Shown piece by piece: positions 1-26,712 of a stretch of 64,000 nucleotides of DNA. The translations under genes were made by a program, and so were the position numbers. The notes beneath the pieces were generated by a model. That model was given only the letters and a program-made list of their open reading frames with translations, searched no databases and was not told the origin of the DNA. Numbering within the stretch: position 1 is the first letter of the stretch; every line of letters starts with the position of its first letter. Source of the DNA: Candidatus Porisulfidus sp. TsSOB (GTDB lineage Bacteria > Pseudomonadota > Gammaproteobacteria > Poriferisulfidales > Poriferisulfidaceae); the NCBI GenBank assembly GCA_002631715.1, contig MRSX01000001.1, forward strand, positions 48,057 through 112,056, given 5' to 3'.

Positions 1-1132
1 GAGTCGACAGCGTCAGCCCGGCCATGGCCGAGTGGAGATTGGCTCCGTCGATGCGCAGGGTCGCGGTCGCCGCGTGGACGGTTACGGTCTCGCGACCGCG
101 GAGCAGTTCGATCTCCACTTCTCGACCAGCACGCAGCAAGCCCAGCACATTGCGCATGTCCTTGACATCACGGATCTCTTCACCATCAATGCGCACCAGA
201 ATGTCTCCCGGGACAATTCCGGCCTGGTCGGCCGGCGATCCTTCCACCACTTCGGTGATGACAACGCCCTCAGTTTGTTTGAGACCGAATGCTTCCGCCA
301 GTTCCGGGGTCATGGCTTGGGCTTGTACCCCGAGTTGGCCGCGCTGTACTTGGCCGAATTCGGTCAATTGGTTGGCTACTTGGAGCACCATGTGGATGGG
401 GATCGCGAAGCCAATCCCGATATTGCCGCCGGACCGGCTCAGGATCGCGGTATTGATACCGACCAGTTCGCCTCGCAAGTTCACCAGGGCGCCGCCGGAA
501 TTTCCAGGGTTGATAGAGGCGTCAGTCTGGATGAAGTCCTCGTAGCCGTAGTTGTCGAATACGCCGCTGCGGCCCAGCGCGCTGACGATCCCGGAAGTTA
601 CGGTCTGGCCTAAGCCGAAAGGGTTGCCGATCGCCACGACGAAATCTCCGACTCGGAGTTGCTCGGAATCGGCGAATGGCAGGCTAGTCAGGTCCTCGGC
701 CTCGATGCGCAGCATGGCCACATCCGTTTCGCTGTCCGAGCCGATCAATTCAGCCTTGATTTCACGCCCGTCGCTCAGGGCCACCGTGATGTCATCCGCT
801 CGCGCGATCAGGTGATGGTTGGTGACGACATGGCCTTTTTCCGCATCCAGGATCACGCCGGTACCGAGACCTCGTCGTACTCGTTTTCGAGTTTGCTGGC
901 CGGGCAGGCCGAAAAAATGCTGGAAAAAGGGGTCTCGGAACAACGGGCCCGTGCGCACCACCTCCTCGTGGGCGGTGGAAATATTGACGACCGCCGGCAC
1001 GGTTTTTTCGAGCATCGGGGCCAGCGAAGGCAGTGAATCCTCACTGCCTTCCCAGGGGAATGCCGCCCAGGCGGGCAGGGTGAGGATGGCTGCAAGTGGG
1101 AGTATGGGCGCGATGCGAGACAGAGAAAGCAT
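1..1132 (-). CDS. DegP/HtrA-family periplasmic serine protease (partial; C-terminal PDZ region runs off the window start)
   Basis: Reverse-strand translation from ATG at 1132 gives a signal peptide (MLSLSRIAPILPLAAILTLPAWA) followed by the trypsin-like core, including GDFVVAIGNPFGLGQTVTSGIVSALGR. No stop within the window, so it is absent from the ORF track. The + strand ORFs 24..613 are its antisense shadow. Confidence 0.85.
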   Translation of the reverse strand, partial: MLSLSRIAPILPLAAILTLPAWAAFPWEGSEDSLPSLAPMLEKTVPAVVNISTAHEEVVRTGPLFRDPFFQHFFGLPGQQTRKRVRRGLGTGVILDAEKGHVVTNHHLIARADDITVALSDGREIKAELIGSDSETDVAMLRIEAEDLTSLPFADSEQLRVGDFVVAIGNPFGLGQTVTSGIVSALGRSGVFDNYGYEDFIQTDASINPGNSGGALVNLRGELVGINTAILSRSGGNIGIGFAIPIHMVLQVANQLTEFGQVQRGQLGVQAQAMTPELAEAFGLKQTEGVVITEVVEGSPADQAGIVPGDILVRIDGEEIRDVKDMRNVLGLLRAGREVEIELLRGRETVTVHAATATLRIDGANLHSAMAGLTLST

Positions 1133-1269
1133 GACCCGGAAAGTATACCCCGTTCGGATGATTTTCGTCTTGTTATTTGGTCGGTTTAGGGGGTGTCGAC
1201 CTAGTAAGGAATCATGGCGACATCAGGCTGTTTCAGGGTTTGTGTGCAGTCATTGGCCGACTGCATGTC

Positions 1270-1360
<91 letters not shown>

Positions 1361-1380
1361 GGGATTCCTCCGGCGGAAAC

Positions 1381-1713
1381 CTAGGCTTTTTGGATGTCGC
1401 CCGTTCCCGCCATCGGGGGCAGATACGTGACGTTTCCTTCGGCCTTGCGAATTTCGCCGGCCCCCGCTTTCTCCACCTCGTCGATACGCATGACCGAGTG
1501 CATCGGGATATAGGTCCGGGGGACGGACTCAAATTCAGCCTTCAGCCGCTCTTCACTCGGGTCGACCACCACTTTCGCCTTCTCGCCGAAAATGATCCCT
1601 TCGATGACGATAAAGCCATACAGGTCGGAGGAGTAAACGTGCTCCGCATAGATCTCGTAGATTTCCCCGTTGGAGAAGAAAATCACTTTGTAGATCGGCT
1701 CTGGCTCTTGCAT
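1381..1713 (-). CDS. conserved hypothetical protein (DUF1820-like small protein)
   Basis: 110-aa ORF with the pattern IYKVIFFSNGEIYEIYA...VVVDPSEERLKAEF...IPMHSVMRIDEV, typical of a conserved small proteobacterial family. Family assignment is from memory. Confidence 0.55.
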   Translation of the reverse strand: MQEPEPIYKVIFFSNGEIYEIYAEHVYSSDLYGFIVIEGIIFGEKAKVVVDPSEERLKAEFESVPRTYIPMHSVMRIDEVEKAGAGEIRKAEGNVTYLPPMAGTGDIQKA

Positions 1714-1757
1714 GATACTACCGTGATCGGGGAATAATGATTATAACAAGACCGCCG

Positions 1758-3101
<1,344 letters not shown>

Positions 3102-3124
3102 GGCGCACCCTTGGCCGAAGGCCG

Positions 3125-4444
3125 TTAAAACTGCTCTTCTTCGGTAGACCCGGTCAGTGCCGTGACGGAAGACTGTCCGCCCTGGATGACGGTGGTCACG
3201 TCATCGAAGTAGCCGGCTCCGACTTCCTGCTGGTGGCTGACGAACGTGTAGCCCCGGTCTGCCGAAGCGAACTCCGGCTCCTGGACTTTCTCCACGTAGT
3301 GCTTCATGCCTTCCTCGCCCGCGTAGTCGTAGGCGAGGTCGAACATGTTGTACCACATGCTGTGGATGCCGGCCAAGGTGATGAACTGGTATTTATAGCC
3401 CATCGCCGACAGCTCGCGCTGGAACTTGGCGATGGTTGCATCGTCCAGGTTCTTCCGCCAGTTGAAGGAGGGAGAGCAGTTGTAAGCCAGTAACTGATTT
3501 GGGTATTCTTTGCGCAGGGCTTCCGCGAACGCCTTGGCGAATTCCAGATCCGGCGTGCCGGTCTCGCACCAGACCAGGTCCGCATAAGGAGCGTACGCCA
3601 GACCGCGCGAGATGGCCTGGTCCAGACCGTTGCGTACACGGTAGAAACCTTCAGAGGTCCGCTCGCCGGTCAGGAAAGGCTTGTCGTTCTCGTCGAAGTC
3701 GGAGGTCACGAGGTTGGCGGCTTCCGCATCAGTGCGCGCCAGTACCACGGTAGGGACGCCCATGACGTCGGCGGCCAATCGGGCCGCGACCAGTTTCTGG
3801 ACGGCTTCCTGAGTTGGCACCAGCACTTTCCCGCCCATGTGCCCGCACTTCTTGACGGCGGCCAACTGGTCCTCGTAGTGAACCCCTGCGGCACCGTTGT
3901 TGATCATATTTTTCATCAACTCGAAAGCGTTGAGTACGCCGCCGAATCCGGCCTCGGCGTCCGCCACGATCGGAGCGAAATAGTCGACGAATTCCTCATC
4001 GCCGGGGTTGACGCCGCGCGACCACTGAATCTCGTCCGCGCGCTTGAACGCGTTATTAATGCGGCGTACCACGGTCGGCACCGAATCGTAGGCATACAGG
4101 GACTGATCCGGGTACATGGTCTCGGATGTGTTGGCGTCAGCGGCAACCTGCCAGCCGGACAGGTAGATGGCCTCGATGCCGGCCTTGACCTGCTGCACCG
4201 CCTGCCCGCCGGTCAGGGCGCCGAGGCAGTTGACATAGCCTTTGCGTGCATCACCGTTGACCAGGCGCCAGAGTTTCTCAGCGCCTTCCGTCGCGTTGGT
4301 GTTGGCGGGCACGCGCGAACCACGCAGGCGTACAACATCTTCCGCTGTGTAGCCGCGACGCACGTCGCTCCACCGGGGGTTGGTATCCCAGTCTTTCTGC
4401 AGGGCTTCAATCTGTTTTTCTCGATCCACTTGAGAGGTCCTCAT
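3125..4444 (-). CDS. aceA: isocitrate lyase
   Basis: 439 aa. [18 protein letters not shown] active-site region, full-length ICL. Confidence 0.95.
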
Positions 4445-4582
4445 CTCATTGATTAGGGCAACCTCGCCCGGCGCGATGCCAAATCGCGAACCCGGAAAAG
4501 GCTAACCGGACAATTTTAACAGAAAAAGAATTAATCGACTTCGAAGATCGATGCTCTGATCTCGGGTTTTGGGCCTTTTCAT

Positions 4583-4611
4583 TTGACAGCCTTGGGTGGG
4601 GGTGCGACAAT
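4583..4611 (+). promoter_or_regulatory. candidate sigma70 promoter of the tRNA-Gly/Cys/Leu operon
   Basis: TTGACA at 4583-4588, a 17-bp spacer, then GACAAT at 4606-4611, about 14 bp before tRNA-Gly position 1. Confidence 0.3.
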
Positions 4612-4624
4612 TCTGCCGCTCGGA

Positions 4625-4700
4625 GCGGGAATAGCTCAGTTGGTAGAGCGTAACCTTGCCAAGGTTAAGGTCGCCGGTTCGAACCCGGTTTCCCGCTCCA
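4625..4700 (+). tRNA. tRNA-Gly (anticodon GCC)
   Basis: GCGGGAATAGCTCAGTTGGTAGAGCGTAACCTTGCCAAGGTTAAGGTCGCCGGTTCGAACCCGGTTTCCCGCTCCA. 76 nt with a canonical cloverleaf. Confidence 0.9.
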
Positions 4701-4738
4701 GTTCCCACCGCAGTTTGATCGCCGGGTCAGGGCAGCAG

Positions 4739-4813
4739 GGGCTGAGTGGCAGAGTGGTTATGCAGCGGCCTGCAAAGCCGTGGACGCCGGTTCGATTCCG
4801 ACCTCAGCCTCCA
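4739..4813 (+). tRNA. tRNA-Cys (anticodon GCA)
   Basis: GGCTGAG...GCGGCCTGCAAAGCCGT...GGTTCGATTCC...CTCAGCCTCCA. Acceptor stem GGCTGAG/CTCAGCC, anticodon loop CUGCAAA. One mismatch in the T stem. Confidence 0.8.
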
Positions 4814-4847
4814 ATTCTTTCTCTCTTTACACTATGATAGGTGCGCT

Positions 4848-5149
4848 GCGGGCGTGGCGGAACCGGTAGACGCTGCGGACTTGAGGCCATTGAGTGCTCT
4901 TCGGGAAACCGGGGATGCAGAACTGCTCAAATTCGGGGAACCCTGTGAAATGGCGATCCCGAGCCAAGCCCGGGAGGGGACTTCCGGGAAGGTGTAGAGA
5001 CTAGACGGGCAGCGCCTAAGGTCGGACGGCTAAGGCGAAGGGATAGTCCGGACCACAAACGCCGCACAGCGGCGGCGGCGAAAGCCGTAGTTGGTGCGAA
5101 AATCCGCTGGGCTTTGCCCGTGGGGGTTCGAATCCCTCCGCCCGCACCA
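4848..5149 (+). tRNA. tRNA-Leu (anticodon UAA) split by a group I intron. Exon 1 is 4848-4882, exon 2 is 5099-5149.
   Basis: The 5' segment GCGGGCGTGGCGGAACCGGTAGACGCTGCGGACTT matches the acceptor, D-arm and anticodon 5' stem of type II tRNA-Leu. The 3' segment AAAATCCGCTGGGCTTTGCCCGTGGGGGTTCGAATCCCTCCGCCCGCACCA gives the anticodon 3' stem (TCCGC pairs GCGGA), a variable-arm hairpin, the T-arm, a 7-bp acceptor perfectly complementary to GCGGGCG, a discriminator A and CCA. The joined exons give an 86-nt tRNA with loop CUUAAAA. Gly-Cys-Leu order mirrors E. coli glyW-cysT-leuZ. Confidence 0.8.
4883..5098 (+). ncRNA. group I self-splicing intron (IC3-like, tRNA anticodon-loop type)
   Basis: Inserted between U34 and A35 of the UAA anticodon. 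The 5' splice site follows U (exon ACUU can pair with intron GAGU to form P1 with a U-G wobble) and the intron ends in G (omega-G 5098). Core elements: GGGAAACC, AAATTCGG, R-like GGTGTAGAGACTAGACGG and S-like GAAGGGATAGTCCGG (P7 pairing GACTA/TAGTC), then P9-type GC hairpins (CGCCGCACAGCGGCG; GGCGAAAGCC). About 216 nt. Confidence 0.75.
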
Positions 5150-5243
5150 TATCCCCCTGAAAACCGCATGAAAACAGGCCTTTCTGCTATACTCTGCCGA
5201 CTCAATAGGGCTGGAAGCGAACGGTAATTTCGTCGCTAACGCC

Positions 5244-6164
5244 ATGATTCGAAAGATTTTTACGGGCCGCCCGAACTTCATGATGCTGCAGGCGGGTGTT
5301 GCCCTGGCCCTGTTCGCCGCCTTGCTGTACTGGCAAAGGGCGATTCTGGTCGAGGTCTACTGGGGACCTTTGGCGACGCAACTCGGCATGGTCGTCAATG
5401 GCGTCATCGGGGTGTTGTTTCTGGTGGCGTTGGCCCGGGTCTTCTACCTGTTGTTCGCCTACACTCGCGAAGGTCGCGCCATTGCCCTGTTTGAGGAGCA
5501 AGTGGATTTCGGCCTGACCGAAGCCGGTATCGAAAGCCTGTCCGAATCCCTGATCGTGCAGCGTTACCGCGTCCTGCAGCAAGGCCAGTCGGAACTGGAC
5601 CGGCCCCAGCAGGCGGCTTTGTCGGCCATCCTGCTGAATCAGGAGATGACGCGTCTCGGCCTGATTCGCCTGATACAGAGCTTGCTGATCCTGCTCGGCG
5701 TATTCGGGACGGTTGCGTCGTTGTCCTTGGCCCTGGTCGGGGCTTCCGACCTGCTGTCCTTCCCGCAGAACGGGGGCGGCATCAGCCTGGTGGTTCACGG
5801 GATGGCGACCGCGCTCTCCACTACGATGACCGCCATTGCTGCTTATCTGGTGCTGACGCTCATCTTTTCCCGACTGGTGGCGAGCCAATCCAGCGTGTGC
5901 CAGCAGATTGAATTGTTGACCCTGCGCCGGTTGCTGCCGCTGGTGTCACGCGAAGGTGGAAACTTGGCCCATACCCTGGCACTCAGGTTGAAAGACCTGA
6001 ATGAAGTGGCCATCGCCTTGGCAGAGGTCCAGGACCGCCTGACTCCCCACCTTGAGGCCATGCGTCACGAGAGGCACGTGCAGAACGAACACAGTAAAAA
6101 ATTGATGGAAGCGCTGCAAAGCGTTGACAAGACCCTGAGGAAGGGCTTCCGGTTGGACCAGTAA
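5244..6164 (+). CDS. MotA/TolQ/ExbB-family proton-channel protein (4 predicted TM helices)
   Basis: 306 aa. Two N-terminal TM helices, a ~90-aa loop, then TM3-TM4 carrying the family signature GVFGTVASL...GMATALSTTMTAIAAYLVLTLIF (cf. TolQ GLFGTVWGI...GIAEALIATAIGL). Helical C-terminal tail. Confidence 0.7.
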   Translation: MIRKIFTGRPNFMMLQAGVALALFAALLYWQRAILVEVYWGPLATQLGMVVNGVIGVLFLVALARVFYLLFAYTREGRAIALFEEQVDFGLTEAGIESLSESLIVQRYRVLQQGQSELDRPQQAALSAILLNQEMTRLGLIRLIQSLLILLGVFGTVASLSLALVGASDLLSFPQNGGGISLVVHGMATALSTTMTAIAAYLVLTLIFSRLVASQSSVCQQIELLTLRRLLPLVSREGGNLAHTLALRLKDLNEVAIALAEVQDRLTPHLEAMRHERHVQNEHSKKLMEALQSVDKTLRKGFRLDQ

Positions 6165-6169
6165 GGACC

Positions 6170-7069
6170 ATGATCGGCGGCCAATCCTCGTTTCCCGACT
6201 ACGCCTCCCATCTCTCCTCGATCAACGAGGAGAACTTCTGGCCGTCCTTCACCGACATCATGATGGTCGTGGTCATCGTGTTCCTGCTGTCCAGCACGGT
6301 CGCCGTACTGCACAACTGGGACCTGTCCAGGCAAGTCCAGGAAACGGCTGCACTTGAGCAGCAGGCCAGGGAAAGGGCGGAAGATCTGAACCTGCGCCGT
6401 ATGCTGCTTCAGCTCGAGTTGGAGGAGATGCAGGGCCGCATGGAGAAGACCCGTGAGGCACTGGAGGCCAAGACCGGCCAGTTGGAGAAACGGGAGGAAG
6501 ATCTGGCCGGTGCGCAGGGCGCGTTGGCCGAGCAGCAGACGCAGCTGATGGATATGCAGGAGGAATATGCGCGCGTACAGACGGAAATGAAGATGAATCA
6601 GGATGTAAGCGCGGAGCGCGAACTGGAACTGCTTGAGGTGCAGCAGCAGTTGGAGAAGATGCGAGAGGAAAGTGTGCTGCATGAGCAGATGTACGTCGAG
6701 GTCGAGAAACAACAGCGGCAGACTCGAGAGGAACTGGAACTCCTGCAGAAGGAGTACGAGGAGATGGGTGAGAAATACGCGGCGCTGTCCAAACCGGCCC
6801 GCAGTCCCATGGGCAAGGTGGTGGCCGCCGTTCGCCACCGGAAGGTGGATGGGCAGCCGTCATTCATGCTTAAGCTTCCGGACGCCCAGCAATTCGAATC
6901 TATCGGCCAGGAGGAAATGCACCAGGCCCTGTCGCGACTCAAGGAGGAACACGGGGATAAGCTGTTCGTTCGGATCGTAATCCCGATGGACAGCAATCTG
7001 ACCTATCAGGAAGGCTGGGAGTTTTCGCTGGACCTGCTGAGGCGCTACGATTACTACTATGCGGATTGA
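6170..7069 (+). CDS. MotB/ExbD/TolR-like membrane anchor fused to a ~150-aa coiled coil and a C-terminal domain of unknown function (no OmpA/PG-binding domain)
   Basis: 299 aa. N-terminal NEENFWPSFTDIMMVVVIVFLL matches the MotB/ExbD plug-TM with the conserved protonatable Asp. Residues ~50-200 are heptad-rich (QQARERAEDLNLRRMLLQLELEEMQGRMEKTREALEAKTGQLEKREEDLAGAQGALAEQQTQLMDMQEEY...). A ~100-aa globular tail ends in YDYYYAD. Start is 6 bp after the upstream stop with RBS AAGGAC. Confidence 0.6.
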   Translation: MIGGQSSFPDYASHLSSINEENFWPSFTDIMMVVVIVFLLSSTVAVLHNWDLSRQVQETAALEQQARERAEDLNLRRMLLQLELEEMQGRMEKTREALEAKTGQLEKREEDLAGAQGALAEQQTQLMDMQEEYARVQTEMKMNQDVSAERELELLEVQQQLEKMREESVLHEQMYVEVEKQQRQTREELELLQKEYEEMGEKYAALSKPARSPMGKVVAAVRHRKVDGQPSFMLKLPDAQQFESIGQEEMHQALSRLKEEHGDKLFVRIVIPMDSNLTYQEGWEFSLDLLRRYDYYYAD

Positions 7070-7189
7070 AAGGGCAGTCGCTCGGCCATGTGCAGCAACC
7101 GGAATCCGCTTGAAACGGCAGGGGCAAGCCCCATATTAATCGGCGACGCCTGAACTCCCGTACACGACAAGAAAGAGAGGAGCACTCAT

Positions 7190-8116
7190 ATGTCCGGGTC
7201 TGTTGTGATTGAAAATCTGGTCAAGATCTACGGTGACCTGCATGCCGTGGACGACTTGAGTTTTGAGGTCGGATCTGGCGAGGTCTTGGGTTTTCTTGGA
7301 CCGAACGGTGCAGGAAAGTCCACGACCATGAAAATCATCACCGGCTTCCTGCCGCCGACTTCGGGCCGCGTGACGGTTTGTGGCCACCCGGTCGAGACAC
7401 AGCCGGAGGCGGCCAAGAGATGCCTGGGCTATTTGCCGGAGGGCGCACCGGCGTACAGCGAGATGACGCCGTGGCAGTTCCTGAATTTCGTGGCAGACAT
7501 CCGTCGACCCGAAAATCGTCGAGAGCGACTGGACTGGGTCATCGGGCAGCTGGGGCTGGAGCCCGTGCTGCACCGCCCGGTCGACACCCTGTCGAAAGGA
7601 TACCGCCGCCGGGTTGGCCTGGCGCAAGCCATGCTGCACGACCCGCGCGTGCTGATCATGGATGAACCGACCGACGGACTGGATCCGAACCAGAAGCGCC
7701 AGGTGCGCGACTTCATCAATGAGATGGCGAAAGACAAGACCATCATCATTTCGACGCACATTCTCGAGGAGGTCGAGGCCATCTGCACGCGGGCCATCAT
7801 TGTTTCCTCCGGCAAGATCCTGGTCGACGAAACCCCCGAGGAGTTGCGCCGCCGTTCCCGGTACTGCAATGCCGTCACGGTTCAGGCAGAGTTGAAGGAA
7901 CCGGTGCGCACCGCGCTCGGCGAACTCGAAGACGTCGCGGTCGTGGAGCCGGAGCGCAACCAGGGTCTGACCCTGATCCCCCGGCCCGGTTGCACGCTGG
8001 AAGGCGCGGTCCGCGATGTCCTGTTGCGGCATAACCTGAAGGAAGTTCCGTTGCACATCCAGGCCGGGCGGCTGGACGACGTGTTCCACACCCTGACTCA
8101 TAACGTCCATGAATAA
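7190..8116 (+). CDS. ABC transporter ATP-binding protein (GldA-like)
   Basis: 308 aa. Walker A GPNGAGKST, signature LSKGYRRRVGLA, Walker B LIMDEPTDGLD. Confidence 0.9.
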   Translation: MSGSVVIENLVKIYGDLHAVDDLSFEVGSGEVLGFLGPNGAGKSTTMKIITGFLPPTSGRVTVCGHPVETQPEAAKRCLGYLPEGAPAYSEMTPWQFLNFVADIRRPENRRERLDWVIGQLGLEPVLHRPVDTLSKGYRRRVGLAQAMLHDPRVLIMDEPTDGLDPNQKRQVRDFINEMAKDKTIIISTHILEEVEAICTRAIIVSSGKILVDETPEELRRRSRYCNAVTVQAELKEPVRTALGELEDVAVVEPERNQGLTLIPRPGCTLEGAVRDVLLRHNLKEVPLHIQAGRLDDVFHTLTHNVHE

Positions 8117-8843
8117 CTTGATCGCGATTCTGCGCCGGGAACTGGTGGGCTATTTCCAGACGCCGGTCGCCTATGTCTTCATCATGATCTTCCTCCTGCT
8201 GTCCGGGACGCTGAGTTTCTATCTGGGAAATTTCTACGAGCGTGAGCAGGCGGACTTGGGCGCATTCTTCACATTTCATCCCTGGTTGTACTTGTTTCTG
8301 GTCCCGGCCATCTCCATGCGCCTGTGGGCAGAGGAGCGAAAGACCGGCAGCATCGAACTGCTGATGACGCTCCCGGTGACCGTGTCGCAGGCGGTACTCG
8401 GGAAGTTTCTGGCAGCTTGGATCTTCACCGGCATCGCGTTGTTCCTGACGTTCCCGATTTGGCTCACGGTCAACTATCTGGGCGATCCGGACAACGGCAT
8501 CATCTTGGGCGCCTACCTGGGCAGTTTCCTGATGGCAGGCGGGTTCATGGCCATCGGTGCCTGTATTTCCGCGACCACGCGCAACCAGGTCGTGGCATTC
8601 ATCCTCAGCCTGGTGACTTGCTTCCTCTTCCTGTTGAGCGGCTTTCCGCTGGTACTGGACTTCTTCCAGTTGTGGCTTCCGCAGCCGGTCGTCGATGCCA
8701 TCGCATCGCTTAGCTTTCTGACTCACTTCTCCTCGATCAACAAGGGCGTGATCGACCTGCGGGATCTGTCCTACTTCGTGATCCTGATCTCGGTCTGGCT
8801 GTACGCCAACATGATCGTGGTCCGAGCCCGCAAGGCAGCATGA
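8109..8843 (+). CDS. ABC-2 family transporter permease
   Basis: 244 aa, 6 predicted TM helices. Overlaps the upstream ATPase stop (translational coupling). Confidence 0.8.
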   Translation: MNNLIAILRRELVGYFQTPVAYVFIMIFLLLSGTLSFYLGNFYEREQADLGAFFTFHPWLYLFLVPAISMRLWAEERKTGSIELLMTLPVTVSQAVLGKFLAAWIFTGIALFLTFPIWLTVNYLGDPDNGIILGAYLGSFLMAGGFMAIGACISATTRNQVVAFILSLVTCFLFLLSGFPLVLDFFQLWLPQPVVDAIASLSFLTHFSSINKGVIDLRDLSYFVILISVWLYANMIVVRARKAA

Positions 8844-10723
8844 ACGGCTCGAATAGAAAGACCTATACGGCGGCAGGGCTCGGCCTGTTGGCCGTGCTGT
8901 TTGTCTCTTCCATCATGTTGAGCAATCTGGCCTTGGACAACATGCGGCTGGATCTGACCGAACAGAAGCTCTACACCATGAGCGAGGGAACCCTGAAGGT
9001 AATCGACAGCATCCAGCAGCCGATCAACCTGTACCTGTTCTTCTCGGATCGGGCCAGCGCAGAAAACGCCCCCCTGCGCAACTACGCCCGGCGGGTTCGG
9101 GAACTGCTGGAAGAGTATACGTATTATTCGGACGGTCGGCTGATCCTGCACGTGATCGATCCGGCGCCGTATTCGGAAGAGGAAGACCGGGCGACGGAGT
9201 TCAATTTGCAATCGCTCCCAATGCAAGGCGGCGACAAGTTGTATTTCGGCCTGGTTGGCACGAATGTGGTGGATGACGTCGAAGTCATCGAATTCTTCCA
9301 GCCGGACCGCGAGGCCTTCCTTGAGTACGACATCAGCCAGTTGATCTATGCCCTGACGAATCCGGCGAAGCCCGTGGTGGGAATCCTTACCGGCCTGCAG
9401 GTATTCGGCGGGTTTGACTTGGCAAGCCAGCAATCCACGCCCCAGTGGGCGATCCTCGACCATATCGAACGACTGTTCGAGGCCCGCCAGATCGACATTG
9501 AAGCTGGGGTGATCGACCCGGACATCCGGATCCTGATGCTGATTCACCCGAAGGACCTGTCCGAGAAAATGCTGTATGCGGTGGACCAGTTCCTGATGCG
9601 TGGGGGACGGCTAATGCTGTTCGCCGACCCGTATGCGGACAAGGACCCCATGTTCCAGGATGCCAGCAATCCTCCGGATTCGGGCGGAATTCAGGCCTCC
9701 GAAATCGATCGGTTGCTGGATGCGTGGGGGCTTGAGATCGGCATGGACGCGATCGTGGCCGACCGAGCCTTGGCCCTGCCGGTGCAGAGCCCGAATGTCC
9801 AGCGGCCGGTTCGCCATGTCTCGTTCATCGGGCTTGACGAGGAAGGAATCAACAAGGACAACCTGATCTCCGCCCAGCTGTCCCGGGTAACGTTCGCGTT
9901 CGCGGGTCAGATCAAGAAGACGGACGCGTTCCAGGGTGAGTTCGAGCCGCTCTTGTACACGTCGGAGGATTCCGGAGAGATTCCGAAGCCGCGCTACCGA
10001 CACCTTCCCGACCCGACTGCCTTGCTGGAGTGGTTCGAACCCGGTAATACCCCCCTGACGCTGGCTGCTTGGGTGCGGCTGCAGCCGGACAGCATGTTCC
10101 CGGAGGGCCCGCCTGAGGATGCGGCGCCGCCTGCGGACGGCCATTTGGCTGAGGCACGGGAGGTGGTCGACGCGATCGTGGTTGCGGATGCCGACATGCT
10201 GTCGGATACCTTGTGGGCGCGGGTGCAGAACTTTTTTGGGCAGCGGATCGTACAGGCTTGGGCCAGCAACGGCGATTTCATTGTCAACGCACTGGAGAGT
10301 CTGGCTGGCAGCGGCGACTTAATCGGCTTGCGGGGTCGTTCCGAATTTGCGAGACCGTTCCATGTGGTCGAACAACTGCGGCGACAGGCGGAGCAACGGT
10401 TCCATGTCAAGGAGGAAGAGCTCCAGCAGCGGCTGCAGGAGGCGGAGGAAAACATCGGCCGGATCCAGCAGCTGAGACAGGAAGGGGAGCAGAGCCTGTT
10501 GACGGAGCAGCAGCGTGCTGAAATCGAGGCTTTCCAGCAAGAGCGGTTACGGGTACGCCGTGAGTTGCGCTCGGTTCGACACGAACTGGATCGGGATATC
10601 GAACACCTCGGCTTCGTCCTGCGCCTGATCAATATCTGGCTGGTTCCAGTCTTGGTCACGATGGCTGCAGTCGGTCTGTGGCTGTTTCAGCGCCGGCGCC
10701 GTTCCCGGAGGGCGACCTCATGA
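8840..10723 (+). CDS. GldG-like ABC-type auxiliary component (ABC_transp_aux family)
   Basis: 627 aa. N-terminal TM, large periplasmic domain, C-terminal TM with coiled coil. Typical partner of the preceding ABC pair. Confidence 0.7.
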   Translation: MNGSNRKTYTAAGLGLLAVLFVSSIMLSNLALDNMRLDLTEQKLYTMSEGTLKVIDSIQQPINLYLFFSDRASAENAPLRNYARRVRELLEEYTYYSDGRLILHVIDPAPYSEEEDRATEFNLQSLPMQGGDKLYFGLVGTNVVDDVEVIEFFQPDREAFLEYDISQLIYALTNPAKPVVGILTGLQVFGGFDLASQQSTPQWAILDHIERLFEARQIDIEAGVIDPDIRILMLIHPKDLSEKMLYAVDQFLMRGGRLMLFADPYADKDPMFQDASNPPDSGGIQASEIDRLLDAWGLEIGMDAIVADRALALPVQSPNVQRPVRHVSFIGLDEEGINKDNLISAQLSRVTFAFAGQIKKTDAFQGEFEPLLYTSEDSGEIPKPRYRHLPDPTALLEWFEPGNTPLTLAAWVRLQPDSMFPEGPPEDAAPPADGHLAEAREVVDAIVVADADMLSDTLWARVQNFFGQRIVQAWASNGDFIVNALESLAGSGDLIGLRGRSEFARPFHVVEQLRRQAEQRFHVKEEELQQRLQEAEENIGRIQQLRQEGEQSLLTEQQRAEIEAFQQERLRVRRELRSVRHELDRDIEHLGFVLRLINIWLVPVLVTMAAVGLWLFQRRRRSRRATS

Positions 10724-11748
10724 ACCGTCGCGAATTGAACATCTTGGCGATCCTGACTGGGATCGTGTTGCTCTTGACTGCCGCGATGTACAACATCCGT
10801 TACCAGTCTGGCGACCAGGAATACATCGGGAGCTTGTGGCTTGAGAATCTCGATATCAACTCCGTCACCCGCATCGACGTCACCGGGCCGGGGAATATGC
10901 CGCAGGTCGCCTTGGAGCGTCGCCCGGAAGGGTGGGGAGTGGTGCAGCGTCAGCACTATCCTGCGAATGTAGGCGCCATCCGCAGCCTGTTGCTGGACTT
11001 GTCGGAAGCAAAACTGCTTGAGCGCAAGACCCATGATCCGGCGCAACATGCCCAGTTGGGCTTGGGCGGAATCGAACGGCTCGAGGCAAAAGGGCAGCAG
11101 GTTACGCTTCACTCAGCGGAAGGTGCTCAGTCGGTTCGCATTGGCGCGACCCCGGATGGGCGCAGCGCCACTTATGTACGAAATGCCGACGACGATCAGG
11201 GCTGGCTTGTGGATCGGACATTCACGATCCCAAGCGAACCACGACGCTGGCTCGACCCGGAGTTGCTGGATATCGGAATGGAGCAGATACAACGGATGGA
11301 AGTCGTGCACCCGGATGGAGAAAGGATCGAAGGGCAACGGGCGGAAGAAGCCGCGGACGTGAAATTCACTGTGCTCAACCTCCCCGAAGGCGCGACGCTG
11401 AAAAACGAGTACGCACTCAGCCGGATGGCCAGCGCCATTGCCAGCCTGTCGCTAGAGGATGTCATGCCGGCATCCCAAGCCGAGGTTTACCTGGAAGACG
11501 CGGCCCAAGCCCGGTACGAGTTCTATCAGGGCTACAGCCTGGAAGCGCGCTTGTTCCCAGTGGATGTGGAACGGTATGCACGCTTTACGGTGCACTTGGG
11601 AGAGGACATGAGCGACGAAGACCGTACCCGGGCGAGCATGCTTGCCCGGCATCTTGAGGGCTGGGCATTCCGAATCCCGTCTTTCGCCCATGACAGCATG
11701 GCACTGCGTTGGGCCGATATTCTGGAGGGAGGCGAGGAGCCCGAGTAA
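10720..11748 (+). CDS. DUF4340-like protein (usual fourth gene of GldG-type ABC clusters)
   Basis: Start taken at MNRRELNILAILTGIVLLL (signal anchor), overlapping the gldG-like stop (ATGA). 342 aa. Confidence 0.55.
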   Translation: MNRRELNILAILTGIVLLLTAAMYNIRYQSGDQEYIGSLWLENLDINSVTRIDVTGPGNMPQVALERRPEGWGVVQRQHYPANVGAIRSLLLDLSEAKLLERKTHDPAQHAQLGLGGIERLEAKGQQVTLHSAEGAQSVRIGATPDGRSATYVRNADDDQGWLVDRTFTIPSEPRRWLDPELLDIGMEQIQRMEVVHPDGERIEGQRAEEAADVKFTVLNLPEGATLKNEYALSRMASAIASLSLEDVMPASQAEVYLEDAAQARYEFYQGYSLEARLFPVDVERYARFTVHLGEDMSDEDRTRASMLARHLEGWAFRIPSFAHDSMALRWADILEGGEEPE

Positions 11749-11749
11749 T

Positions 11750-14225
<2,476 letters not shown>

Positions 14226-25425: not shown

Positions 25426-26712
25426 TCAGGCGAACATGTCTGCCACGATGTTGTTGTACCAACTGTACGCATACTGAACCTCGCGGGCCAGCATTTCGTC
25501 CGAAGCGTCCGAGGGCGTCAAGCCTCCGGCCACCTTGGCGACCTTGCTCTTGTCCTCCGCCAAGCGGTAAACCGCCGCAACCGAGATGCCGTAATCCGGC
25601 GCAATCAGGCTGTAGCAGGTGTTGACATAGGATGGCGTGCCTGGCTCCTCGTCAGCCAACATGGCGACGACTGCTGCCGCACAGACTTTCCCTTCGGAAT
25701 TGGCCGCGTATCCGGATTTCGGCAACCCGGTGGCGATGCTGGCATCACCGATGACGTGCACGCCTGGCACCAGTTTCGATTCGAAAGTATCGAGATGGAT
25801 CGGGCACCACCCAGAGTCATCGGCCAACCCGGCCGCCAGCGCAATCTGTCCCGCGCTTTGCGGTGGGATGACGTTGATCACCGCACCTTCGTGGGTGTCG
25901 CCGAATTCGGTGGTCACCGTCATGTCGGCGGTATTGACCTCGGCGATGCCCCCGGCAGTGTCGGTGCCGGAGACCCATTCGATCATGCCGTCGTAGCGGC
26001 GCTCCCAGCCCTGCGTGAACAGGCCCATCTTCGAGAACTTGTCCTTGGCGTCCAGCACCAGGATTTTCGAATTCGGCTTGTTCTCCTTGAAGTAATGGGC
26101 GACCTGGCAGACTCGTTCGTAGGGTCCGGGAGGGCAGCGGAACGGGTTGCCGGGTGGGCAAATGATGAATGTGCCGCCGTCGTCCATGGCTTCGAGTTGG
26201 CTGCGTAGCAGCGCCGTTTGCGGGCCGGCCTTCCAGGCGTGGGGCATGGCTTCGGCTGCCGCCATGTCGTAACCTTCGATCGCATCCCACTTCAGGTCGA
26301 TGCCGGGGCTGACGACGAGCCGGTCGTACGGGAAGCTGTCCCCGCCTTCGGTCGTGACGGTGCGCGCATCGGTGTCCACTCCCGTGGCCTTGGAATGCAC
26401 CACTTGGATGCCGTGGTTTGCCAAGCCTTCGTATCCGTGGCGGATGGTCGAGATGTCTCGACCGCCGCCGATGACCTCGTTGCTCATGAAACAGGTGTAG
26501 TAGTGGTCGTTCGCTTCGATCAGGGTGACGTTAATGCTGGGATCCGCCAGCTTGACGTGTTTCGCTGCGACCGCGCCAGCCGCGCCACCGCCAATCACCA
26601 CCACATTCTTGTTACCGCCGAGGGCAAGCTGGGGGAAGCTCATCCCGATCGTGCCTACGGCCGCGATGCCGCCGGTCGCTTTCAGGAAGCCGCGTCTTGT
26701 CAGGGTTGTCAT
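25426..26712 (-). CDS. fccB: flavocytochrome c sulfide dehydrogenase, flavoprotein subunit
   Basis: 428 aa. Tat signal [27 protein letters not shown]-binding [16 protein letters not shown] flavoprotein fold. Downstream of a dihaem cytochrome c gene. Confidence 0.85.

Follow-up and report, generated by a model that had tools for sequence, protein, structure and literature searches.

Does the tRNA-Leu(UAA) gene at positions 4848-5149 of this 64,000-nucleotide (nt) stretch of DNA (the whole of which is called the window below) carry a group I intron in its anticodon loop, and is such an intron unusual in a proteobacterium, as an earlier note on the sequence had supposed? We conclude, with a probability of roughly 0.93, that the insertion is a genuine group I intron of subgroup IC3 and that it is probably self-splicing. 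It is also an ordinary member of a class that has already been catalogued.

The anatomy of the gene and the nucleotides at its splice sites can be read directly. In intron mode, the ARAGORN call is a tRNA-Leu(taa) of 86 nt whose ends are exactly 4848 and 5149 and which contains a 216-nt intron, written as 'gactt-Intron-aaaat'; U34 and A35 are therefore the bases on either side of the intron. The sequence spliced in silico is again recognised by ARAGORN as a canonical type II tRNA-Leu(UAA) of 86 nt with a 7-bp acceptor stem, a long variable arm and CCA. The gene consists of three parts:

4848-4882, plus strand: tRNA-Leu(UAA) 5' exon, with the 5' strand of the acceptor stem, the D arm, the 5' strand of the anticodon stem, and C32, U33 and U34 (ARAGORN intron mode)
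4883-5098, plus strand: group I intron of IC3 type, 216 nt, without an open reading frame (ORF) (RF00028 match, map of P1 to P9, covariation, identity to Ncf2.Leu.3Ug)
5099-5149, plus strand: tRNA-Leu(UAA) 3' exon, with A35, A36, A37 and A38, the 3' strand of the anticodon stem, the long variable arm, the T arm, the 3' strand of the acceptor stem, A73 and CCA

The 5' half ends in ...GGACTT (RNA ...GGACUU), and its last residue, U34 (4882), serves as U(-1) at the 5' splice site. The intron is thus preceded by U, and its last base is G5098, the terminal guanosine (omega-G); at least 73 of the homologues listed likewise end in G. The 3' half opens with AAAATCCGC (also written AAAAUCCGC) and closes with CCA. 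The earlier note had described a 216-nt intron between U34 and A35, following a U and ending in G, within the third gene of a Gly-Cys-Leu tRNA cluster, and each element of this description agrees with the intron-mode call.

Under permissive filters, the Rfam group I model RF00028 (Intron_gpI) matches 4873-5061 of the plus strand over model positions 1-253 with 39.3 bits (E = 1.1e-8 for the local stretch, 1.6e-6 window-wide). The score exceeds chance by far, yet stays under the curated gathering score of 50. We drew the structure on the window sequence using the IC3 architecture and the curated consensus structure (SS_cons) in the supplement of Williams 2020 (bioRxiv 10.1101/2020.01.27.920355). 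A full P1-P9 fold can be drawn, in which 88/88 pairs, tRNA helices included, are standard in the window sequence without a single mismatch; the layout agrees with the curated SS_cons, which the P7 assignment follows. The folding and P1-P9 mapping proposed in the earlier note could thus be completed, and the P3-P7 core is foldable. The elements are as follows, with pairing and compensatory changes counted in the alignment of 64 sequences described below and recovery referring to the minimum free energy (MFE) fold of the single sequence:

4880-4884 (exon CUU and intron GA) with 4890-4894 (UUGAG), plus strand: P1, with pairs C-G, U-A, U.G, G.U and A-U
4898-4915, plus strand: P2 hairpin, 7 bp, with GAAA tetraloop (L2); compensatory changes in 7/7 pairs; recovered
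4923-4928 (CUGCUC) with 5007-5012 (GGGCAG), plus strand: P3; 99.7% paired, compensatory changes in 3/6 pairs
4933-4938 with 4957-4962, plus strand: P4; 100% paired, mostly invariant
4942-4943 with 4952-4953, plus strand: P5, short, enclosed by P4 together with the J4/5 and J5/4 strands
4963-4965 with 4991-4993, plus strand: P6
4969-4988, plus strand: P6a hairpin; compensatory changes in 6/7 pairs; recovered
4997-5003, plus strand: P7 5' strand (G, bulged A, GACUA), of which 4997 and 4999-5003 pair with 5044-5049; forms the pseudoknot with P3
5013-5037, plus strand: P8 hairpin (CGCCU.AG ... CU.AGGCG); good support for its 4 basal bp, with compensatory changes in 3/4
5038-5043, plus strand: J8/7 (AAGGGA), conserved, directly 5' of the P7 3' strand
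5044-5049, plus strand: P7 3' strand (UAGUCC); invariant in 64/64 sequences and outside the search 20-mer
5052-5055 with 5092-5095, plus strand: P9 of a three-way junction; compensatory changes in 3/4 pairs
5060-5074, plus strand: P9a hairpin; compensatory changes in 6/6 pairs; recovered
5075-5088, plus strand: P9b hairpin with GAAA tetraloop; compensatory changes in 4/5 pairs; recovered

By homology, P7 would be the guanosine-binding helix. The core strings quoted in the earlier note are all present: GGGAAACC corresponds to L2/P2, AAATTCGG to J3/4-P4, GGTGTAGAGACTAGACGG to J6/7-P7-J7/3-P3 and GGGATAGTCC to J8/7-P7. The single-sequence MFE fold recovers P2, P6a, P9a and P9b only, with a z-score of -2.63; since the P3/P7 pseudoknot cannot be represented in such a fold, it was not used for mapping the core. 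No homing endonuclease ORF is present within the 216 nt, which are taken up completely by ribozyme helices and leave no space for one. The intron is too small for such a gene, as the earlier note had stated, and endonuclease genes have been reported only in tRNA introns longer than 500 bp (PMC13011429).

Homologues were collected by scanning a species-representative genome collection for the exact 20-mer AAGGTGTAGAGACTAGACGG, which spans J6/7, P7, J7/3 and P3; the scan gave at least 120 loci with 121 matches and, since an exact 20-mer was needed, is neither complete nor unbiased. Among the 121 matches listed, at least 73 lie in tRNA-Leu(UAA) genes that are split directly after the first anticodon base, i.e. 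at the site found in the window (ARAGORN intron mode), and 73/73 of these have the junctions CTT|N...G|AAAA. Their introns measure 202-336 nt with a median of 235. The other matches listed are mostly in tRNA-Arg(CCU/UCU), tRNA-Met/Ile2(CAU), tRNA-Thr and a few others, and for 15/121, many of which lie at the edge of a locus, ARAGORN called no gene with an intron. Going by record titles, the hosts of the split tRNA-Leu(UAA) genes among the matches listed are distributed as follows:

Alphaproteobacteria: 41
Acidobacteriota: 14
Betaproteobacteria: 6
unclassified proteobacteria: 5
Gammaproteobacteria: 4
Bacteroidota: 2
Binatia: 1

The proteobacterial share is 56/73 among the matches listed, and any statement on the proteobacterial part of this intron type rests on the present 20-mer survey and on PMC13011429. 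Cultured hosts are included in the list, namely Sphingomonas canadensis FWC47, Reyranella soli NBRC 108950, Carnimonas nigrificans ATCC BAA-78, Microbulbifer sp. TYP-18 and several strains of Bradyrhizobium, Burkholderia and Paraburkholderia. The window intron is 80-89% identical to many homologues; the closest among the matches listed belong to a 'Ca. Porisulfidus' metagenome-assembled genome (MAG; 89%), Halioglobus (84.5%) and Sphingomonas canadensis (83.5%). When positions 1-12000 of the window were compared with all 120 loci by blastn, no similarity was detected outside the tRNA region. On a contig of one proteobacterial MAG (L009) the core 20-mer occurs twice, at a distance of about 480 bp and in opposite orientation (5652-5671 (+) and 6129-6148 (-)), one copy being within a split tRNA-Leu(UAA) and the other not resolved into a tRNA by ARAGORN.

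The structure was projected onto an alignment of the window pre-tRNA with 63 homologues (A1, 64 sequences). Standard pairs occupy 93.9% of the cells; shuffling the columns lowers this to 82.1%, and shifting the 3' partners by 1-3 columns to 33-44%, although the second control is put at a disadvantage by our having drawn the structure on a sequence that is itself part of the alignment. Changes on both sides, i.e. compensatory ones, occur in 53/88 pairs, and 0/500 shuffles reach the observed value on any of five measures. All of the tRNA exon helices covary, with 90-100% of their cells paired. The wobble U4882.G4892, which marks the 5' splice site, is kept in 64/64 sequences; P1 as a whole pairs in 98.4% of the cells, and compensation is seen at two further P1 pairs. 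Hardly any variation occurs in P4 and P7, and the joining strands J3/4, J6/7 and J8/7 are invariant. The GAAA loops of P2 and P9b are conserved, with G58, A60 and A61 of L2 being invariant, and one P5 pair flips from C-G to G-C in 15 sequences.

Family placement likewise follows from direct comparison. Williams 2020 counts 5292 intron-split tRNA genes in a set of about 80,000 bacterial genomes. Leu.3Ug (CUU/a...g/AAAA) is one of the four types there called classical, all of which, according to the paper, are marked as IC3 in a database of group I introns. The insertion at U34|A35 and the junction pattern CUU/n...g/AAAA make the window intron a Leu.3Ug member. Its compact core lacking P5abc, the GNRA-capped P2 and P9 domain and the kinship with the Azoarcus and Synechococcus introns point to subgroup IC3; the same subgroup had been named in the earlier note, and the full-length RF00028 match, the P1-P9 map and the covariation are all in line with it. 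Identities to nine sequences of the Williams seed alignment are 76-88% over aligned positions. The highest is with Ncf2.Leu.3Ug, the first row of the seed alignment (87.9% of aligned positions, 83.9% overall), compared with 83.6% and 65.3% for Aol6.Ile2.5Ug of Azoarcus, 76.2% and 67.9% for Bba346.Leu.3Cg, and 75.9% and 63.4% for the cyanobacterial Sel1.Leu.3Ug. These values therefore group the intron with non-cyanobacterial (proteobacterial) tRNA introns and give no indication of a cyanobacterial import.

The element-by-element comparison is in agreement with this grouping. The non-cyanobacterial Ncf2.Leu.3Ug shares with the window intron the tRNA, the CUU/intron/AAAA site, U(-1), omega-G, the helix set, the P9 three-way junction and the GCGAAAGC hairpin, and differences are confined to the peripheral loops L1, the P5 loop, P6a, L8 and P9a; with 216 nt, the window intron lies near the lower limit of the 202-336 nt spanned by Leu.3Ug among the matches listed. 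The cyanobacterial and plastid trnL(UAA) intron (Anabaena/Nostoc PCC 7120, Synechococcus) has the same tRNA, the 34/35 site and the IC3 core, but its J6/7-P7 reads GCAGAGACU instead of GUAGAGACU, the P3, P8 and P9 sequences also differ, and the P5 and P6 extensions are longer and AU-rich. The Azoarcus intron belongs to the same subgroup and has core strings in common (CAAAUUCGG, GAGCCAAG, AAGGUGUAGAGACUAGACGG, AUAGUCC); both introns bear a GAAA loop on P2 and a second one in the P9 domain, and both are compact, ORF-less, GC-rich and inserted in the anticodon loop. It differs in having a simple P9 and the CCUAAG...UAUGG motifs in P5 and P8, which we take to be the 11-nt tetraloop receptor, whereas in the window intron P5 is a minimal hairpin and the P9 domain is branched (P9/P9a/P9b). 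The host tRNA is also a different one, and the insertion follows anticodon-loop position 5 (Williams numbering) rather than position 3 (34/35). Leu.3Cg, represented by Bba346.Leu.3Cg, occupies the same tRNA position in proteobacteria with a related core and P9 domain, but C(-1) forms a C-G pair in P1, where the window intron has the canonical U(-1).G wobble.

These results alter the premise on which the locus had been considered remarkable. The earlier note stated that group I introns are seldom met in the tRNA genes of bacteria other than cyanobacteria and that the known proteobacterial ones are confined to tRNA-Ile and tRNA-Arg. Neither statement survives the 5292 genes of Williams 2020 and the at least 73 same-site genes found here, 56 of them proteobacterial: Leu.3Ug is a catalogued type, Williams 2020 also reports 72 proteobacterial Leu.3Cg variants, and a 2026 survey (PMC13011429) describes 34/35 in tRNA-Leu as a common, well-characterised site and places the introns of Pseudomonadota mainly at 33/34, 34/35 and 36/37. 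The premise corresponds to what had been published by the 1990s and is now outdated.

The history of the intron within its own lineage can be approached through the flanking genes:

1758-3101, minus strand: isocitrate dehydrogenase (ICD), NADP-type, adjacent to and co-oriented with the isocitrate lyase gene, beside the tRNA cluster
3125-4444, minus strand: isocitrate lyase (ICL)

Exact-sequence look-ups of the ICL and ICD ORFs gave no match, so that the genome of the window appears to be missing from the collection searched, and the organism was placed by homology. The ICD protein has matches of 87-94% identity in ENA and NCBI assemblies and is 83% identical to that of Ca. Porisulfidus. In three relatives (L121-L123; ICD 89-94% identical), both the ICL-ICD-DUF1820 synteny and the Gly-Cys-Leu order are kept, and an intron of 216-217 nt is present at the same tRNA-Leu site with differences that are compensatory; P3, for example, is CUGCUC/GGGCAG in the window and CCGCUC/GGGCGG in L123. 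Because synteny, site and compensatory differences are common to all three, the intron appears to have been vertically inherited within this Ca. Porisulfidus-related gammaproteobacterial lineage, and its structure is, to judge from the substitution pattern, under selection.

The rest of the cluster lies immediately upstream of the split gene:

4583-4611, plus strand: candidate sigma-70-like promoter, TTGACA, 17 nt, GACAAT, with TG ahead of the second hexamer (consensus match only)
4625-4700, plus strand: tRNA-Gly(GCC), first gene of the cluster (ARAGORN; Rfam tRNA 71.4 bits)
4740-4813, plus strand: tRNA-Cys(GCA), second gene of the cluster (ARAGORN; Rfam tRNA 60.7 bits)

The promoter candidate matches 10/12 consensus positions at 14 nt upstream of tRNA-Gly and is consistent with a single transcription unit for the cluster. 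The order Gly(GCC)-Cys(GCA)-Leu(UAA) is also found in two gammaproteobacterial loci (L059 and L069), and it corresponds to glyW-cysT-leuZ of E. coli. The Cys-Leu spacer is 34 nt in the window versus about 1.3 kb in Ca. Porisulfidus (L069:281-1544) and about 2.4 kb in Halioglobus (L059:755-3116); in L123 it is 440 nt (about 1724-2162) and includes a called 49-aa ORF. The variable spacer suggests that sequence has been gained by or lost from the cluster.

How the intron might be removed can be proposed by homology, self-splicing and the tertiary contacts being modelled on characterised introns. The cluster would be transcribed, probably from the promoter-like site at 4583-4611. Exon residues C32-U33-U34 would pair with the internal guide of the intron to form P1, putting U34 in the U.G wobble at the 5' splice site, and the core would fold into the P3-P7 pseudoknot, P4-P6 and P8. 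The GAAA tetraloops of L2 and L9b probably dock on receptors in P8 and P5 in an Azoarcus-like manner. An exogenous guanosine bound in P7 would then attack the phosphate after U34, and G5098 would subsequently take the place of this guanosine in the same site. Attack by the free 3'-OH of U34 after G5098 would join the exons into the 86-nt tRNA-Leu with the loop CUUAAAA. The anticodon stem formed between the exons probably helps to align the splice sites, standing in for a strong P10; in the Anabaena pre-tRNA-Leu, self-splicing has been demonstrated to depend on this stem (Zaug et al. 1993, cited in PMC3984707). The tRNA-Leu intron of Nostoc PCC 7120 self-splices in vitro (PMC13011429), and crystal structures of Azoarcus intron-exon complexes are among the work cited in PMC3984707.

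Several observations weigh against a competent self-splicing intron and have to be set beside this scheme. In our drawing, P5 comprises just 2 bp, and the distal pairs of P8 lack conservation, 27-44 of the 64 sequences being unpaired there. By eye, the L1 loop (GGCCA) could not be paired convincingly with the 3' exon (AAAAUC) as a P10. The invariance of the P7 5' strand, and of part of P3, is in part a matter of ascertainment, because these lie within the search 20-mer. Finally, the RF00028 check recommended in the earlier note did return a match, but its 39.3 bits are below the curated gathering score of 50.

The last of these points could be taken to mean that the intron has decayed into a relic unable to splice and that the locus is a tRNA pseudogene, with UUA decoded by another tRNA-Leu(UAA) copy elsewhere. 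We consider this quite improbable. According to Williams 2020, none of the 12 Rfam seeds used there was bacterial, and a working cut-off of about 18-20 bits was applied, so that the low score is accounted for by a seed set without bacterial sequences. All of the core elements and both exons are intact without a mismatched pair, the invariant positions of J3/4, J6/7, J8/7, the U.G pair and omega-G are all present, and the intron persists, with compensatory substitutions, in the three relatives and in Ca. Porisulfidus.

Alternatively, the architecture could be sound while splicing in vivo needs a host protein, such as an RNA chaperone or a tRNA-binding factor. The very short P5 and the lack of an evident P10 would fit such a dependence, as would the misfolding of the Azoarcus ribozyme, which chaperones help to overcome according to work cited in PMC3984707. 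However, the related IC3 tRNA introns of Azoarcus and Anabaena/Nostoc self-splice protein-free in vitro (PMC13011429, PMC3984707), and the GC-rich helices, the two GAAA tetraloops and the MFE z-score given above suggest a stable fold, which makes dependence on a protein hardly probable. That two degenerate tRNA fragments and a spacer were juxtaposed by chance or rearrangement and are never joined is effectively refuted, even though default tRNA finders miss the gene, by the perfect cloverleaf that the halves form, the full group I ribozyme between them, its covariation and the identical arrangement in at least 73 species-level genomes and in the syntenic relatives. A genuine, probably self-splicing IC3 intron is thus retained as the explanation of the locus.

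The practical consequence is one of annotation. Default ARAGORN and Rfam at its gathering score report only tRNA-Gly(GCC) and tRNA-Cys(GCA) in this neighbourhood and miss the split tRNA-Leu; the default Rfam run is silent on the intron because the score is below 50. Standard annotation would therefore show a genome without tRNA-Leu(UAA), whereas intron-aware tools (ARAGORN -i, tFind, the gpI_bact_tRNA model) recover the gene. Weak Rfam matches nearby (mascRNA, tRNA-Sec, Plastid-psbI-rps4) were dismissed, since all they pick up in the 3' exon is its variable arm and T arm. The Plastid-psbI-rps4 3'UTR model, which weakly matched the antisense strand of the tRNA-Leu T arm, also matches 1273-1325 (+), antisense to tRNA-Ser(GGA) at 1270-1360, with 45.9 bits (E 1.4e-6; gathering score 68). 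There, too, the model has almost certainly caught a tRNA-like stem-loop and no real element.

Across the wider sample, the similarity of introns does not track host class, as judged from nearest neighbours in the alignment. The copies of the gammaproteobacteria Carnimonas and Microbulbifer (L063, L090) fall among alphaproteobacterial ones in exons and intron alike: their tRNA-Leu exons are 94-97% identical to those of three alphaproteobacterial loci (L008, L066, L006), and their introns share with these a long P5 extension of the GCUAA...CAUGC type. Exon identity correlates with intron identity (r = 0.59). Since the sequences are short and the sample is biased, we treat this as no more than a hint of occasional inter-class transfer of the whole tRNA-plus-intron locus. 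For cyanobacteria, the idea of whole-locus transfer has already been published (Rudi et al. 2002, cited in PMC3984707).

Further features in the window concern the host and the surroundings of the cluster:

5244-6164: MotA/ExbB-like protein
12781-14193, plus strand: TnpB/IS605-family element, a 470-aa ORF with HTH_OrfB_IS605, OrfB_IS605 and Cas12f1-like TNB domains, about 7.6 kb downstream of the tRNA cluster
25426-26712, minus strand: flavocytochrome-c sulfide dehydrogenase flavoprotein, FccB-like (FCSD_central, FCSD-flav_bind)

Ca. Porisulfidus, the nearest named relative, serves as an outgroup to the sulfur-oxidising SUP05 clade (PMC9123188). Given this kinship and the FccB-like gene in the window, which fits a sulfide-oxidising way of life, a sulfur-oxidising host is plausible. 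The lifestyle assumed in the earlier note is accordingly acceptable, but the claim that the intron is unusual there is not supported, the class being widespread.

The genomes of the lineage appear to be small, the largest contigs of the relatives being 1.6-2.0 Mb. One may speculate that the split gene is the only tRNA-Leu(UAA) of the lineage, with splicing acting as a regulatory checkpoint, or, separately, that gene and intron move between classes as a cassette; we regard these ideas as unlikely. The scientific significance of the locus is small, in that it adds one more member to a class with thousands catalogued and a published reference that is 88% identical. If the split gene were indeed the sole tRNA-Leu(UAA), decoding of UUA would depend on guanosine-dependent self-splicing. 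As it stands, the locus provides a data point on the stable inheritance of such an intron in a probably sulfur-oxidising, Ca. Porisulfidus-related lineage.

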